The notes under the pieces were generated by a model, which saw nothing but the letters and a program-made list of their open reading frames with translations, had not been told where the DNA came from and ran no database searches. Positions 56,168 to 61,774 of a stretch of 64,000 nt of DNA are shown one piece after another. This DNA comes from Gaiellaceae bacterium (lineage in GTDB: Bacteria; Actinomycetota; Thermoleophilia; Gaiellales; Gaiellaceae). Made by a program: the position numbers and the translations under genes. How positions within the stretch are numbered: the first letter of the stretch is position 1; every line of letters starts with the position of its first letter. Location of the stretch: positions 2,293,988 through 2,357,987 of the forward strand of contig BPGK01000001.1 in the NCBI GenBank assembly GCA_026002995.1, written 5' to 3'.

Positions 56168-56524
56168 TCAGCCGACGACGCGGAAGCTGCCCCGCATCTC
56201 GTCGGCGTGCGGCGCGCACAGGAAGCGATACGTCCCCTTGCGGAGGGTCAGCACCAGCGCCTTGCGGCCCACGAACTCCACGCCCGTGACGGCGCGGTTG
56301 ACGCCCGGTCCGACGAGCCGGAAGTCGTGGTCGTCGGAACGATCGGTCACGACGAGCCGGTAGGCGCCGGCCTTCAAGACGGTGACCTTCTTGCCTCCGG
56401 CCCGGAGGTCGATGGTGTGACCCGGGCCCACCGTACCGACGAGCGGAGTCGGCGCCGCCACGGCAGCTCCCGAGGTGACGAGAGCGACGACCGCCGTCGC
56501 GACGGTTGCGCGGAGGGCACGCAT
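56168..56524 (-). CDS. Small secreted cupredoxin-like (type-1 copper) protein
   Basis: 118 aa. The signal peptide reads MRALRATVATAVVALVTSGAAVAA. Candidate Cu ligands are HDF...C-A-P-H-A-D-E-M (YRFLCAPHADEMRGSFRV). Confidence 0.7.
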   Translation of the reverse strand: MRALRATVATAVVALVTSGAAVAAPTPLVGTVGPGHTIDLRAGGKKVTVLKAGAYRLVVTDRSDDHDFRLVGPGVNRAVTGVEFVGRKALVLTLRKGTYRFLCAPHADEMRGSFRVVG

Positions 56525-56904
56525 CAGAACCCCGCCCTCGCCGTGCAGACCTCGCCCGCCGGGCTCGTGGCCCGGGCGACGAACCGGTCCGTGCCCGGGC
56601 CGTTCGGCGTCACGACGCGGAGCGTGAAGGAGCCACTCGGGCTCTTCGTGACCCGCGTCGTCTTCACGACGCGCGTCCCGTTCCGAGCGATCGCGACGAC
56701 CCAGCGCACGCCGTTCCGGTTCTGGTCGACCTCGAACTCGACCTCGATGCCGCCGTCCTCCTCGCTCAGCTTCAGCTTCGCCGTGCTCGAGGCCGTGCAG
56801 ACGCCCGCGACCCGAACGTCGCCACGCTTCGCGTGTCCGACGGGCGCGACCGCGAGCGCGGCGACCGCAGTGGCCAGGACTGCCACCGCCACCCGTGTGT
56901 CCAT
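56524..56904 (-). CDS. Small secreted 2-Cys protein of unknown function (paralog A)
   Basis: ATG at 56904 is preceded by GAGGAGGAG. 126 aa with signal peptide MDTRVAVAVLATAVAALAVAPVGHA. It has one Cys near each end of the mature chain. Paralog of 58991..59371. Confidence 0.65.
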   Translation of the reverse strand: MDTRVAVAVLATAVAALAVAPVGHAKRGDVRVAGVCTASSTAKLKLSEEDGGIEVEFEVDQNRNGVRWVVAIARNGTRVVKTTRVTKSPSGSFTLRVVTPNGPGTDRFVARATSPAGEVCTARAGF

Positions 56905-56967
56905 GGTGCTCCTCCTCGCTTGCTGGCAGTTCACGCCTCGAGGATGTCGGAGCCTCGGTCGGGGACA

Positions 56968-56983
56968 CAATGGGACCTTGGTC
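56968..56983 (-). promoter_or_regulatory. 16-bp motif GACCAAGGTCCCATTG (read on the minus strand) upstream of paralog A; candidate response-regulator site
   Basis: The plus strand reads CAATGGGACCTTGGTC. The reverse complement matches 58945-58960 at 15 of 16 positions. It contains the palindrome GACC-NN-GGTC. Confidence 0.5.
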
Positions 56984-56992
56984 GTAGAACCG

Positions 56993-58312
56993 ATGCCCTC
57001 TCCTGACACCGTCACGCGAGCGCCCGCCGTCGCCGGCGAGGTCGCGAAGTTCGTCGCCGCCGGCCTCGCCGCGCTCGCCGTCTTCGTCATCGGCGCGGTT
57101 CTCGTGATCCGGGATCTCGGCCAGTCGGAGGCGCTTCGCGACGCCCGGCAGTTCGCCATTCTCTCCGGGCAGGGGATCGTCGAGCCCGTCCTCCGGGACT
57201 CGCTCCTGCGGGGCGACCGCCGCGCGCTCGAGGCCGTGGATGTGGCCGTGCAGGAGCGCGTGCTCGGCGAGCGCATCGTCCGCGTGAAGATCTGGGACCG
57301 CGCGGGCCGCGTCGTCTACTCGGATGAGCCGCGCGCGATCGGCTCCACGTTCCCGCTCGAGGACGAGAAGCTCGAGGTCCTACGAACGGGCGAGGCCCGC
57401 GCCGAGCTCAGCAACCTCGCAGGCCCCGAGAACCGGTTCGAGCGAGGGCTGGGCGAGCTGTACGAGGTCTACCTCCCGATCCGCACCCCCGACGGCACGC
57501 CGCTCCTCTTCGAGACGTACCAGCGAGCGGAGGAGGTGAGCTCGACGGGTCGGCGCATCTGGCTGCCGTTCGCGGCGCTCGTGCTCTGGAGCCTCGTCCT
57601 CCTGTGGCTCGTCCAAGTGCCGCTCGCCTGGCGGCTCGCAAACCGTGTCCGGCGCGGGCACGAGGAGCGGGAGAGGCTCCTGGAGCGCGCCGTCGACGCC
57701 TCGATCGACGAGCGTCGACGCATCGCGGGCGAGCTGCACGACGGGGTCGTGCAGGACCTCGCGGGCATCTCGTACTCGCTGAGCGCAGCCGCCGACCGCC
57801 TGCCCCAGGACGCGCCGGCAGATGTGCGCGCCGCCCTCCGCGAGGGAGCGACCGCGACGCGTGACAGCATGCGCCGCATCCGCTCGCTGCTCCTCGAGAT
57901 CCATCCCCCCAACCTCCGCGCCGCGGGGCTCGGTGCGGCGCTCGCCGACCTCGTCACCCCGCTCGCCACACACGGAATCGCGGTCGAGCTCGACGTCGCC
58001 GACGCGCTCGCGCTCCCGGAAGACGTCGAGCAACTCGTCTACCGCGCCGCCGGTGAGGCGCTCCGCAACGTCGAGAAGCACGCGCATGCCTCGCGCGTCT
58101 CCGTGGAGCTCCGCGCACGTGACGGCGCCGTGCGGCTCGCGGTCGTGGACGACGGCGTCGGCTTCACGGCCGAGGAGCGCGAACGCCGACGAGCCGAGGG
58201 CCACGTCGGCCTCTCGCTCGTCGAGGAGCTCGCGACCCGCGCGGGCGGGCGCATCGAGATTCGATCGGCGCCCGGAAGGGGCACGATGTTCACCTTGGAG
58301 GTTCCAGCGTGA
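56993..58312 (+). CDS. NarL-type sensor histidine kinase (HisKA_3 + HATPase_c)
   Basis: ATG at 56993. Two TM segments flank a ~150-aa extracytoplasmic domain. H-box RRRIAGELHDGVVQDL. N/G boxes EALRNVEKHA, DDGVGF and GLSLVEE. Confidence 0.9.
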   Translation: MPSPDTVTRAPAVAGEVAKFVAAGLAALAVFVIGAVLVIRDLGQSEALRDARQFAILSGQGIVEPVLRDSLLRGDRRALEAVDVAVQERVLGERIVRVKIWDRAGRVVYSDEPRAIGSTFPLEDEKLEVLRTGEARAELSNLAGPENRFERGLGELYEVYLPIRTPDGTPLLFETYQRAEEVSSTGRRIWLPFAALVLWSLVLLWLVQVPLAWRLANRVRRGHEERERLLERAVDASIDERRRIAGELHDGVVQDLAGISYSLSAAADRLPQDAPADVRAALREGATATRDSMRRIRSLLLEIHPPNLRAAGLGAALADLVTPLATHGIAVELDVADALALPEDVEQLVYRAAGEALRNVEKHAHASRVSVELRARDGAVRLAVVDDGVGFTAEERERRRAEGHVGLSLVEELATRAGGRIEIRSAPGRGTMFTLEVPA

Positions 58313-58944
58313 TCCGCATCGCGATCGCCGACGACCACGCCGTCGTACGAACGGGGCTCGCTCAACTCGTCGACACGTTCGACGGCGTCGAGCTCGTCGG
58401 CGCCGCCACGAACGGCGAGGAGGCCGTGCGCGTCGCCCGCGAGCTCGCGCCGGACGTCGTGCTGATGGACCTGGAGATGCCGGTACTCGACGGGATCGAG
58501 GCAACGCGACGGATCAAGGACGCATGCCCGCAGACCGCCGTCGTCGTCCTCACCTCGTTCTCCGACCGCGAGCGCATCCTCGGAGCGCTCGAGGCAGGAG
58601 CAGTCGGCTACCTGCTGAAGGACGCGGAGCCCGACGAGCTCGCGCGCGCGATCCGGGCCGCGGCGCGCGGCGAAGCGCCGCTCGATCCGAAGGCCGCGCG
58701 AGCGCTGCTCGGCGCCCATCGCAGAGCGGCGTCCGCGGCCGAGACCCTCTCGGAGCGCGAGCGCGAGGTGCTGAGCATGGTGGCACAGGGGCTCCCGAAC
58801 AAGGTCATCGCGAGACGCCTGGAGATCAGCGAGAAGACGGTGAAGGCGCACCTCACGAGCGTCTTCCGCCGGATCGGCGTCACCGATCGGACGCAGGCTG
58901 CCCTCTGGGCTGAGCGCCACGGGCTCGCGCGTCGCGAGTCCTAG
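58309..58944 (+). CDS. NarL/LuxR-family response regulator
   Basis: 211 aa. Receiver domain (IADDHAVVR...VVLMDLEMPVLDG...K) plus LuxR HTH (LSEREREVLSMVAQGLPNKVIARRLEISEKTVKAHL). Confidence 0.95.
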   Translation: MIRIAIADDHAVVRTGLAQLVDTFDGVELVGAATNGEEAVRVARELAPDVVLMDLEMPVLDGIEATRRIKDACPQTAVVVLTSFSDRERILGALEAGAVGYLLKDAEPDELARAIRAAARGEAPLDPKAARALLGAHRRAASAAETLSEREREVLSMVAQGLPNKVIARRLEISEKTVKAHLTSVFRRIGVTDRTQAALWAERHGLARRES

Positions 58945-58960
58945 GACCGAGGTCCCATTG
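58945..58960 (+). promoter_or_regulatory. 16-bp motif GACCGAGGTCCCATTG upstream of paralog B; candidate response-regulator site
   Basis: It starts immediately after the response-regulator stop codon, about 30 nt upstream of the paralog B start. Its orientation relative to the downstream gene is the same as at 56968-56983. Confidence 0.5.
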
Positions 58961-58990
58961 CCCGGACGACGCGCGCCGCGGCACGATCCA

Positions 58991-59371
58991 GTGGTGAATC
59001 GCGTCGCCTTCGTCGTCGCGGCCGCCGTCGTGCTCGCGCTCCCCGTCACCGCCTCGGCGGACCGCGCAGACGACGAGGTGCGGGCGCGCGGAGCGTGCTC
59101 TCCGGGCCGCACCGCCGAGCTCCGCGTCCGCGCCGACGACGGCGAGCTCCGCGTCGAGCTGCGCGTCGTCTCGCGGCGAAGCGGCGAGGCCTGGAGCGTC
59201 ATCCTCGTGCACGAGCGACGCATCGTCACGCGCACACGAGCGACCACGCAGGGCAGCAGCCGCAGCTTCCGCCTGCGTCGGTGGCTGCCCGACCTCTACG
59301 GCAGGGACACGGTCGTCGCGCGCGCGACGGGCCCCGGCGGCGCGAGCTGCCGTGCGTCGGCGACGCTCTAG
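58991..59371 (+). CDS. Small secreted 2-Cys protein of unknown function (paralog B)
   Basis: The ORF 58958..59371 probably starts at GTG 58991 or 58994 (VNRVAFVVAAAVVLALPVTASA signal). It aligns without gaps to paralog A: VR..G.C...TA.L....DG...VE..V...R.G..W.V......R.V..TR.T...S.SF.LR...P...G.D..VARAT.P.G..C. Confidence 0.65.
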   Translation: MVNRVAFVVAAAVVLALPVTASADRADDEVRARGACSPGRTAELRVRADDGELRVELRVVSRRSGEAWSVILVHERRIVTRTRATTQGSSRSFRLRRWLPDLYGRDTVVARATGPGGASCRASATL

Positions 59372-59417: not shown

Positions 59418-59915
59418 TCAGGACTGCAGGTGCGCCTCGACGAACCAGAGGTGCTTGTCGATCGCCCGCGACACGTCCGTGAAGAGGTCGGAGGTGTCGA
59501 GGTCGCCGAGCTCGGCCGCAGTGTCGATCGCCTCGCGGACGGCGGCGCCGTACGTCGCGAGACGGCTCGCGATCACCTGCACCGTCTCCGTCCCAGCCAC
59601 CGCGTCGAGCGGGTACTCCTCGAGCGTCGAGGCCTCGGCCGCCATGCGCGCCGTGCCGAGGGCGAGCCCGCCCAGCGCGGTCGCGCGCTCGGCGATCTCG
59701 TCCACGAACCCGAGAACGCTCTCCGCGATCTCGTCGTAGAGCTCGTGCAGCTGGATGAAGTCCGAGCCCTTCACGTTCCAGTGCGCCTGCTTGAGCTGCG
59801 AGTAGAGGTCGAAGCTGTCGGCGAGCCGCGCGTTCAGGAGCTCGACGAGCTTCTGGCGCACGTCCTCGGCGAGGTCGTTGCGGGTCTCGAACATCCGTGC
59901 GGTCGTGGTAGCCAT
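59418..59915 (-). CDS. dps: Dps (DNA starvation/stationary-phase protection protein, ferritin-like)
   Basis: ATG at 59915 is preceded by GGGAGG. 165 aa with ferroxidase-site residues in LYSQLKQAHWNVKG..F..LHELYDE. Confidence 0.92.
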   Translation of the reverse strand: MATTTARMFETRNDLAEDVRQKLVELLNARLADSFDLYSQLKQAHWNVKGSDFIQLHELYDEIAESVLGFVDEIAERATALGGLALGTARMAAEASTLEEYPLDAVAGTETVQVIASRLATYGAAVREAIDTAAELGDLDTSDLFTDVSRAIDKHLWFVEAHLQS

Positions 59916-60018
59916 CGATACCTCCCGCTGTCGCTTACCCCTCGATTGTGCCGTCGAAAGGCTCCCTTGCGCGGCGGCAGATCGTGCCTCCGTATCTCTC
60001 TGCGCGTAGGCTGACATC

Positions 60019-60717
60019 GTGAGCAGCTCCTCGTGGCACCAGGTCGACCTCGTCCCGGCACTCGACGACTCGGCGCTCGCGCTCGTCGCCTCCGAGGGGG
60101 GTTCCGGCGCCGCGCTTCGGCTGAACGACGCGGAGCGCGACACGCTGCTCTACGCCGTCCGCGGAGCGGGCACGCTCGCGCTCGGCGAGGAGTCGGTGTC
60201 ACTCGTGGCGGGGGACGCCGCCCTCGTTCTCGCGGGCGAGGAGGCTACGGTCGAGGCGGGCTCCGACGGGCTGAGCGTCCTGCGCGCCACGGTCGGACCG
60301 GAGGCCGACCGACACGCGCCGATCGGCCCCCGCACGCTCGTGTCGTCTCTCCGAACGGCGGACGCAGAGCAGGCGACCGGCGCGCGCTCGTTCCAGGTTC
60401 TGTTCGGGCCGCACAACGGCTCGACGCGCGCGACGCTGTTCGCGGGCTTCATCCCCCCGGGCAAGGCGCCCTGGCACTACCACCTCTACGACGAGATCGT
60501 CTGGGTACCGGAGGGCCCGGGCCGGCTGCACCTCGGCGACACCGTCACCGATCTCGGCCCCGGCTCCGCGTTCCGGCTCCGCCCGCGCCAGGTGCACATC
60601 GTCGAGAACACGGGCGACTCCGAGCTGACCGTGATCGGAATCTTCACGCCGGCCGGCAGCCCGTCGGCCGCGTACCTCGAGCCCGAGGTCGCCGCCGAGT
60701 ACCGCTTCGGCGGGTAG
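60019..60717 (+). CDS. Cupin/bicupin domain protein
   Basis: 232 aa. The C-terminal cupin reads PWHYHLYDEIVWVPEGPGRLHLG...RPRQVHIVENTG. A weaker N-terminal cupin-like half is also present. Confidence 0.75.
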   Translation: MSSSSWHQVDLVPALDDSALALVASEGGSGAALRLNDAERDTLLYAVRGAGTLALGEESVSLVAGDAALVLAGEEATVEAGSDGLSVLRATVGPEADRHAPIGPRTLVSSLRTADAEQATGARSFQVLFGPHNGSTRATLFAGFIPPGKAPWHYHLYDEIVWVPEGPGRLHLGDTVTDLGPGSAFRLRPRQVHIVENTGDSELTVIGIFTPAGSPSAAYLEPEVAAEYRFGG

Positions 60718-60721
60718 CTCG

Positions 60722-61774
60722 ATGCGACTCTCGATCCCGGTCGTCTGGAGCGAGGCGCACCGCCGCCACGCGCCCGAGACCGGGGTCTGGGTCGGTGTGC
60801 GGATCCCAGCGGACGAGGTTCCCGAGCGCGCGGAGCGCATCCGACGCTCACTGGAGGACGCCGGCGCGCCGATCGTCCGGGCCGAGCCACACGCCGACGA
60901 GACGCTCCTCGCAGTCCACGAGCCGGCGCTCGTCGAGTTCCTGCGCACCGCGTGGGCAGCCTGGAGCGAGGCCGGGTACCCCGGCGACCCCGGCCAGGAC
61001 GAGGTCGTCGGCTACATCTTCCCCACCCCCGGGCTACTCGGCGTCGTCGATCCGCACGTGCCGCGCTCGCCCGCCGCGCGTACGGGGGCGTACTGCTTCG
61101 ACACGATGACGCCGATCGGTCCGGGCACCTGGGAGGCGGCGCGCGCGGCGGTGGACTGCGCGCTCACGGCCGCCGACCTCGTGCTCGACGGGGCACCCGC
61201 GGCGTACGCGTGCTGCCGCCCACCGGGACACCACGTGACGAGCAGCGCGTACGGCGGCTCCTGCTACCTGAACAACGCCGCAGTGGCGGCCGCCCACCTC
61301 CGAGACCGCGGGGTCGAGCGGGTCGCGATCCTCGACCTCGACGCGCACCACGGCAACGGCGCCCAGGCGATCTTCTGGGAGGAGGAGCGCGTGCTCACGG
61401 GATCCGTGCACGTCGACCCGGGCGCCGGGTGGTTCCCGCACTTTCTCGGCTTCGCCGACGAGCGCGGCGTGGCGAACCTCAACCTGCCGCTCGCGCCGGG
61501 CTCGGGGGACGACGCGTGGCTCGAGGCGGTCGACCGCCTCGCGGAGGCCGCGCACGCCCACGGCAGCGAGGCGCTCGTCGTCCCGCTCGGCGTCGATGCG
61601 CACGCCGACGACCCGAACGCGCCGCTCGAGGTCACGGGCGCAGGGTTTCGCCAAGCTGGACTGAGGCTCGGCGCGCTCGGTCTTCCGACCGTCGTCGTCC
61701 AGGAGGGCGGGTACGTGCTCGAGACCGTCGGCTCGCTCGTCCGGGCCGTCCTCGAGGGTCTCGCGGAAGCGTGA
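60722..61774 (+). CDS. Histone-deacetylase-family (arginase fold) deacetylase / acetylpolyamine amidohydrolase-like
   Basis: 350 aa with CRPPGHH, LDLDAHHGNGAQ and GGY. Confidence 0.9.
   Translation: MRLSIPVVWSEAHRRHAPETGVWVGVRIPADEVPERAERIRRSLEDAGAPIVRAEPHADETLLAVHEPALVEFLRTAWAAWSEAGYPGDPGQDEVVGYIFPTPGLLGVVDPHVPRSPAARTGAYCFDTMTPIGPGTWEAARAAVDCALTAADLVLDGAPAAYACCRPPGHHVTSSAYGGSCYLNNAAVAAAHLRDRGVERVAILDLDAHHGNGAQAIFWEEERVLTGSVHVDPGAGWFPHFLGFADERGVANLNLPLAPGSGDDAWLEAVDRLAEAAHAHGSEALVVPLGVDAHADDPNAPLEVTGAGFRQAGLRLGALGLPTVVVQEGGYVLETVGSLVRAVLEGLAEA

Follow-up and report, generated by a model that had tools for sequence, protein, structure and literature searches.

The subject of this report is a two-component system and the small exported proteins encoded around it in a stretch of DNA from a Gaiellaceae bacterium (contig BPGK01000001.1 of assembly GCA_026002995.1); "the window" denotes this whole stretch, 64 kb in length. 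A histidine kinase and a response regulator are encoded here between the genes of two small exported proteins, named A and B, which are paralogs, and the gene of A is followed by that of Cup, a small cupredoxin. All five genes were found where a preliminary description of this DNA had placed them, and their coordinates are collected in Table 1 together with those of the control elements. The arrangement recurs in related genomes, A and B are each preceded by the same conserved inverted repeat, and the whole may form an envelope module driven by its own regulator.

Table 1. Genes and putative control elements of the module and its surroundings (positions are those of the window)
Feature	Positions	Strand	Remark
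Cup, predicted small blue-copper protein, 118 aa	56168-56524	-	start overlaps the stop of A (TGATG)
Paralog A, 126 aa, exported	56524-56904	-	
Putative control element of A, TACGACCAAGGTCCCATTGTGTCCCCGACC	56957-56986	-	CGACC-AA-GGTCC inverted repeat, -35-like TTG, second GACC half-site
Gap between A and kinase			88 bp, divergent genes
Histidine kinase	56993-58312	+	HisKA_3 and HATPase_c
Response regulator	58309-58944	+	NarL/GerE-type; start overlaps the stop of the kinase
Putative control element of B, AGTCC-TA-GGACC-GA-GGTCC-CATTGCC	58937-58963	+	overlaps the TAG stop of the regulator
-10-like hexamer CACGAT	58982-58987	+	3-6 nt before two candidate GTG starts of B
Paralog B, 126 aa, exported	58991-59371	+	
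Dps	59418-59900	-	convergent; Ferritin domain, E=1e-26

The two paralogs are 39% identical over 96 aligned residues, without gaps (E=3e-18), and the shared residues include the motif VARAT.P.G..C, which bears out the earlier claim of a gapless, end-to-end relationship at about one-third identity. Both proteins carry a Sec-type signal peptide, ending in VGHA before KRGD in A and in TASA before DRAD in B, and in both of them the lipobox is absent. Each mature chain holds exactly two cysteines, C36 and C120 in the numbering of A, one near each terminus as had been described. Both of them are present in 293 of the 297 aligned family members (the other four are gapped at one Cys column), W68 is present in 296, and a terminal disulfide between such near-universal cysteines is plausible. 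A is a basic protein (isoelectric point, pI, 10.2; charge +6) and B a very basic one (pI 11.4; charge +8; 21 Arg) with one conserved His, in the motif HERR. The ATG of A is preceded by a Shine-Dalgarno sequence, GAGGAGGAG. A-type sequences are highly conserved, the stretch IEVEFEVDQNRNGVRW being nearly invariant. Over 21 modules the mean p-distance amounted to 0.28 for the regulator, 0.34 for A, 0.38 for the outer domain of the kinase and 0.52 for B; it can be said that B evolves faster than A.

The family to which A and B belong is large and almost nameless. Homologs of A numbered 1,609 at E<=1e-3 in a collection clustered at 90%, almost none of them informatively named, and a profile of A and B types gave 1,515 clusters at 50% identity. 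Cluster look-up returned the name "hypothetical protein" only, and all organisms named among the members are Gaiellales/Gaiellaceae or other Thermoleophilia metagenome-assembled genomes (MAGs). Neither protein matched Pfam or NCBIfam, no specific match to PDB sequences was obtained with single sequences or with the profile, and no homology to a known auxiliary protein family was found in these three sources, in agreement with the earlier statement that the paralogs cannot be assigned to any family. The carbohydrate-binding family CBM2 was tried and rejected: the lead had been the terminal cysteines and a single-sequence match at E=0.01 to the CBM2b of xylanase D, the match vanished with the family profile, PF00553 was not matched, and CBM2 was absent from the top 50 structural matches found by Foldseek. 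An AlphaFold2 model of A, built with 44 homologs, reached a predicted local distance difference test score (pLDDT) of 86.9 and is all-beta except for the signal-peptide helix, and A and B are accordingly modelled as basic beta-sandwiches of about 100 residues. If the loops alternate as in a simple beta-sandwich, which is read from the strand order, the DQNRNG, PSGSF and SPSGE loops would share the end that bears the cysteines, and this end would be the likely binding or functional surface.

Longer relatives of the paralogs are also encountered. Two or three A/B-type domains stand in tandem in single exported proteins (P0150, 266 aa; P0224, 368 aa; P0182; P0261), and ten longer family members held no extra Pfam domains. 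Three or more His residues outside the domain are found in 11 of the 297 aligned members. Low-complexity, His/Asp-rich segments of the HGSDD, GADDPxGH and GDDHGGHGEDEPGDD kinds form tails in part of the family (P0245, P0289, P0165, P0233 and P0196) and on a cupredoxin, and are met as stand-alone exported peptides too; these segments look like metal-binding tails.

The conservation of the layout was examined in 80 species-representative genomes, all of them Gaiellales/Thermoleophilia MAGs. The full module, in which A is divergent from the kinase, the regulator and B (A<->kinase-regulator-B), is present in 48 of them; two modules are cut by a contig end, five genomes form an undetermined class, and the remaining 25 hold an orphan A gene with this sensor pair absent. 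The same order is shown by all metagenome loci fetched via A homologs, and the arrangement is not a product of chance. The symmetric module around a sensor pair that the preliminary description had drawn from one genome, two-component system and both paralogs included, is a recurrent neighbourhood. No further neighbours common to all modules were found beyond A, B, the kinase, the regulator and Cup, only clade-specific synteny. Departures from the usual layout are also seen: two tandem A-type genes lie on the same strand as the kinase, the regulator and B in one locus (L051:913-4535), and in another (L073) the order A-kinase-regulator-B is kept with all genes on one strand. Kinase or regulator matches are broken into several frames at L006:4524-5791, L007:3993-4590 and L037:2867-4769, which in MAG contigs may be due to long-read frameshift errors or pseudogenes.

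A-type genes that lack the NarL-type pair are found directly beside a different system, composed of an OmpR-type regulator and a HAMP/HisKA kinase with a single-Cache-like sensor (L077:4779-8363, L066, L084, L026 and L060), which indicates that the family tends to travel with two-component systems generally. At L077 a cytochrome c gene follows this OmpR-type variant; it was rejected as a conserved partner, being present in that one locus only.

The evidence that bears most directly on regulation comes from the DNA between the genes. Alignment of the gap between A and the kinase revealed a nearly invariant element, a site of 16-19 bp (GGACC-NN-GGTCC-CATTG). Its core, an inverted repeat of 5-2-5 type, borders on a -35-like TTG or overlaps with it, and the centre of the repeat lies about 9-10 nt upstream of the TTG. 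Before A, ACGACCAAGGTCCCATTGTG at 56966-56985 (minus strand) is the single exact match in the window; before B, GACCGAGGTCCCATTG occupies 58945-58960 (plus strand), directly after the stop codon of the regulator. A degenerate pattern of the site has two matches in the window, one before A and one before B, against 0.07 expected. Among kinase-bearing loci a correctly oriented copy of the site precedes A in 51 non-redundant cases and B in 51; nearly all modules have two copies, and none was found at the orphan A loci. From the end of the box to the start of the gene the distance is about 44-81 nt (mostly 60-77) for A and about 26-73 nt (mostly 34-58) for B. The consensus of the A site is TACGACCAAkGTCCCATTGTGGCCnGGACC ... 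CAsGCT, followed by the Shine-Dalgarno sequence GAGAGGAG, and that of the B site is GGTCC-TA-GGACC-GA-wGTCC-sATTGCG ... CACGAT, with the start codon 6-7 nt later and no Shine-Dalgarno sequence.

The position of the site is that of a class II activator, and it is proposed to be the putative operator of the regulator, with A and B on separate promoters; the same geometry makes activation the likelier direction of regulation. In the window no Shine-Dalgarno sequence precedes B and a -10-like hexamer lies close to its start, which suggests a leaderless transcript; GGCACGATC, followed by 6-7 nt and a start codon, recurs at other loci. The B transcript is probably leaderless, and its start is probably the GTG at 58994. 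Scans for consensus sigma-70 promoters and terminators in this region, the G+C content (GC) of which is about 72%, found nothing. A further conserved motif, GAGTATCGC, is present at L001:5838-5921 and in other long A-kinase gaps, where it separates the control site from the start of the kinase; read on the strand of the kinase it gives GCGATACTC, a -10-like sequence about 9 nt before the kinase ATG, and the kinase transcript may be leaderless too.

The same site is met outside the module. A scan of metagenome contigs with the exact pattern TASGACCRAKGTCCSATTG gave at least 121 matches in at least 120 DNA stretches. Among the matches listed, 76 lie on contigs with GC >= 0.66, where an A/B gene follows 34 of them and the sequence breaks off too early behind 10; in the remaining 32 the next open reading frame (ORF) has a signal-peptide-like N terminus, as judged by a simple hydrophobicity test, in 23 cases and not in 7 (in two of these seven a later start is followed by a hydrophobic segment), and no ORF was called in 2. 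The recurrent or independently supported targets that follow the site, again among the matches listed, are cupredoxins (L094, L201 and L204, that of L201 ending in GDDHGGHGEDEPGDD repeats), exported His/Asp-rich peptides with HGSDDPAGH-type repeats (L098, L100 and L133, the first two adjoining a regulator 64-70% identical to that of the window), a dihaem cytochrome c (L127/L171) and a Lipoprotein_15 protein (L111/L160). In a homologous module with the site (L118, L156, L159, L199 and L206; identity to the window pair about 48% in the kinase and about 61% in the regulator) the position of A is held by a small exported family without cysteines. Its members (L159:1767-2250 and others) have about 131-140 aa and the motif ERELEVEVQH, most of them with no Cys in the mature chain, and a distant relationship to A was rejected at an hhalign probability of 8%. 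Cupredoxins, His/Asp-rich peptides and cytochrome c behind the site point to a small regulon of exported proteins with a metal or redox flavour. The copper or redox role that had been guessed at for the module gains indirect support from these targets and from the similar tails within the A family.

The kinase and the regulator themselves are of a familiar kind. Pfam domains (PF07730, HisKA_3, E=8.5e-14, and PF02518, HATPase_c, E=5.9e-17, in the kinase; PF00072, Response_reg, E=3.6e-27, and PF00196, GerE, E=1.4e-22, in the regulator) define a two-component system of NarL/FixJ type, as the preliminary description had it. No NCBIfam equivalog (NarXL, MctSR, MadSR, LiaSR) reached its cut-off with either protein, and all scores stayed far below: the NarL model scores the regulator at 185 bits, below the equivalog cut-off, and the NCBIfam matches of the kinase cover its cytoplasmic half only. 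The name MctS/MctR, which belongs to a rhizobial monocarboxylate-transport regulator, was rejected, the match being confined to the cytoplasmic kinase core. Two transmembrane helices of the kinase (about residues 18-40 and 188-212) enclose an outer domain of 146 aa, which is acidic, with a pI of 4.8 and a net charge of -7 (the median over 46 orthologs is -6.4). No PDB sequence relative of this domain was found, and a fold of PDC/Cache type is suggested by RVKIWDRAGRVVYSD, which weakly matches a single-Cache-like domain (E=0.02).

Cup was recognised in the preliminary description from a copper-like ligand pattern and from its TGATG junction with A; the junction is confirmed, and the assignment stands on firmer ground. 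The ligand set H66...C103-x2-H106-x3-M110 is invariant in 31 homologs at about 54% mean column identity. Cup itself matches the Pfam domain Copper-bind (PF00127) at E=0.005 and 17.8 bits, below the gathering cut-off of 21.2, and the domain is carried by some of its homologs; the PDB profile matches are all cupredoxins, and so are the top 50 PDB matches listed by Foldseek for an AlphaFold2 model with a pLDDT of 86, with template modelling (TM) scores of up to 0.70 on the target. By modelled fold and ligand set Cup is an exported type-1 cupredoxin, and copper binding is predicted. Its place in the neighbourhood is less fixed than had been supposed. Two-component system and paralogs are conserved and the cupredoxin is optional, being present in 9 of the 80 genome loci, five times after A and four times after B. 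Relatives at 55-65% identity stand in unrelated contexts and more distant ones stand alone, and Cup was rejected as a dedicated module member. Nevertheless, its occurrence after either paralog, together with the stand-alone cupredoxins behind the site, argues for a functional link and not for mere synteny.

The genes beyond B were also considered as members and rejected. The position of Dps just downstream of B, noted earlier, is confirmed, and this adjacency, seen in 3 loci, is lineage-specific synteny. The whole block of Dps, a two-domain cupin and a histone-deacetylase-family protein (59418-61774) is common to the closest relatives only (L004 and L010, with a few more for the cupin); Dps, bicupin and phosphotransferase were all discarded as synteny only. 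In annotating such DNA mechanical ORF lists need care, because at 72% GC long spurious ORFs arise opposite to real genes or ahead of them. Examples are 56207-58312 (plus strand), a frame of 701 aa that takes in the kinase and crosses Cup and A in antisense, and 58039-59247 (minus strand).

Taken together, the best overall explanation, to which a probability of about 0.5 is given, is a regulator-driven envelope module with exported outputs linked to metal or redox homeostasis. In the proposed course of events, the membrane kinase would sense an extracytoplasmic cue with its acidic, probably PDC/Cache-like outer domain and phosphorylate the NarL-type regulator, a dimer of which would bind the GGACC-NN-GGTCC inverted repeat at the -35-like TTG. 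A promoter in the divergent gap would then drive A, with Cup translationally coupled to it, and a second promoter, starting on the stop codon of the regulator, would drive the probably leaderless B. A and B would be the main outputs and would serve as binding proteins of the envelope. In a possible second role the basic paralogs might feed back on the outer domain of the kinase, by analogy with CpxP on CpxA or MgrB on PhoQ; the charges are complementary (-7 for the outer domain against +6 for A and +8 for B). A bolder version, possible though held with considerable doubt, is that A and B represent a new class of disulfide-stapled beta-sandwich, at once output and extracellular feedback or co-sensing partner of a dedicated NarL-type kinase, which together with cupredoxins and His/Asp-rich peptides would form an unknown regulon of metal/redox envelope homeostasis widespread in uncultured soil Thermoleophilia.

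Several observations weigh against this explanation. The mature A of the window contains neither His nor Met, the A-type homologs checked hold at most one of each, and the outer domain of the kinase lacks Cys, His and Met altogether. Neither resembles a classical copper(I) site, and a direct, CusS-like sensing of copper(I) is made less likely by this want of soft metal ligands. A Foldseek search of the PDB with the A model found weak, generic immunoglobulin-like sandwiches (RhoGDI, MD-2/MD-1, UNC119, carbohydrate-binding modules), with TM scores mostly of 0.25-0.4 and at best 0.57; the top matches were lipid-binding sandwiches of the ML/RhoGDI kind, at TM 0.25-0.4 and a root-mean-square deviation of 9-12 A. 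Cup accompanies about a fifth of the modules only. The 25 genomes in which A lies apart from this sensor pair and its site imply a function of A-type proteins that does not need this kinase. Concerning the wider regulon, the 45 listed matches on lower-GC contigs are probably mostly due to chance, and tens of chance matches are expected for the pattern by a rough estimate from an assumed collection size; because of this, targets that occur once were not trusted and recurrent ones were relied on. Finally, the regulator may have no part in this control, and the putative operator could belong to another factor. The earlier suggestion of a module that is both sensed and induced has two halves. The second finds strong indirect support, since the same site stands at a fixed distance before A and before B and is missing from sensor-less A genes. 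The first finds none in a partial Mantel test controlled for the cytoplasmic part of the kinase (21 loci, a weak test), in which A and B showed no specific co-evolution with the outer domain (r = -0.05 and -0.31).

That test bears chiefly on the idea that A and B are auxiliary co-sensors, which capture the stimulus or act as a titratable inhibitor and relay the state to the outer domain of the kinase, in the manner of HbpS with SenS and of CpxP with CpxA. In favour of such a role are the export of both proteins, whose genes border the sensor pair on either side in 48 of 80 genomes, the opposite charges of the partners, the A-type genes beside a different, OmpR-type system and the documented actinobacterial precedent of HbpS-SenS-SenR (PMC4991794). 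It is nevertheless considered rather unlikely: besides the missing co-evolution signal, a third of A genes have no adjacent kinase, there is no homology to CpxP or HbpS and Pfam is empty for both paralogs, and in related modules the position of A or B is held by unrelated exported proteins, namely the Cys-less family and the His/Asp-rich peptides, an exchange more in keeping with interchangeable outputs than with a dedicated co-receptor. The site could also serve some other factor as its promoter or operator, for instance an alternative sigma factor or a regulator that governs exported proteins globally; the sensor pair would then be a mere neighbour. Its directionality, its promoter-like distance and its presence before many genes for exported proteins with no kinase nearby on the contig speak for such a factor, which is yet judged unlikely, for a 5-2-5 inverted repeat suits a dimeric helix-turn-helix regulator of NarL/GerE type and not a sigma factor, two sites accompany nearly every module and none the sensor-less A genes, and variant modules with other exported proteins also keep a homologous regulator beside the site.

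Very little credence is given to the view of A and B as secreted self-signals or antimicrobials under quorum-type autoinduction, as in bacteriocin loci of Firmicutes. The layout needed for such a loop is present, as both proteins are exported, adjoin a two-component system and have a putative regulator site upstream of their genes, and B diverges quickly. Against it stand the nature of the proteins, which are Sec-exported, folded domains about 100 residues long and not processed peptides, a conservation of A (p-distance 0.34) close to that of the regulator (0.28) and unlike that of pherotype signals, and the fact that transporter, processing and immunity genes are not conserved nearby.

Gaiellales and other Thermoleophilia are abundant in soil and genetically almost unstudied. 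The protein family, the layout with paired paralogs, the operator proposed here and its regulon are absent from Pfam and NCBIfam, and no description of any of them or of the module was found in the literature searched. What is supplied is a large unannotated family of about 1,500 clusters at 50% identity and a sharply defined cis-element from which a regulon can be predicted by sequence alone, and a two-component system is connected with exported copper and redox proteins. If the chain from regulator through site to target is true, it would be among the first regulatory circuits defined for Thermoleophilia and its promoters, fused to reporters, would give a means to find the signal. Small exported partners of two-component systems are nothing unusual, CpxP, HbpS, CseA, MgrB and CssRS-HtrA/B being examples, and because of this no known principle is overturned; the value lies in a new family and a new regulon and not in a new kind of mechanism.

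Among the known systems, HbpS-SenS-SenR of Streptomyces is a three-component redox system in which HbpS is an octameric haem- and iron-binding protein (PMC4991794). Like the module described here it belongs to the actinobacteria and joins a two-component system to a secreted accessory protein whose gene lies next to it; it is tied to metal or haem and to redox stress, and in the lineage of the window the iron and oxidative-stress protein Dps is nearby, in an adjacency that is not conserved across modules. A and B match no Pfam family, and haem and iron binding is a feature of HbpS. Cup resembles proteins of the plastocyanin and amicyanin type in its predicted cupredoxin fold, its H, C, H and M ligands and its C-x2-H-x3-M loop, and differs from them in scoring below the Pfam threshold and in being co-transcribed, as the overlapping genes suggest, with an uncharacterised exported protein under a two-component system.

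The box of DosR (DevR) in mycobacteria, a short GGGAC-type palindrome with a 2-bp centre, is also the site of a NarL-type regulator and resembles GGACC-NN-GGTCC, although its half-sites read differently. The kinases DosS and DosT are cytoplasmic and of haem-GAF type, unlike the kinase of the window with its outer sensor domain, and the regulator is not called an ortholog of DosR. In Bacillus subtilis the main targets of CssR-CssS are htrA and htrB, which encode serine proteases of secretion stress; there as here two paralogous exported targets have each their own site and one of them lies divergently beside the system, but A and B, unlike HtrA and HtrB, have no catalytic motifs or known family. 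CpxP of Escherichia coli is a strongly induced product of CpxA-CpxR that binds the sensor domain electrostatically. CpxP is helical and A and B are predicted beta-sandwiches, with no relation in sequence or fold; the Cpx regulator is of OmpR type and not of NarL type, and two paralogs with a site each stand here in the place of one protein, their feedback being a proposal only. The two systems nevertheless share their basic plan, in which a small exported protein is encoded divergently from a two-component operon, with sites in the shared gap.

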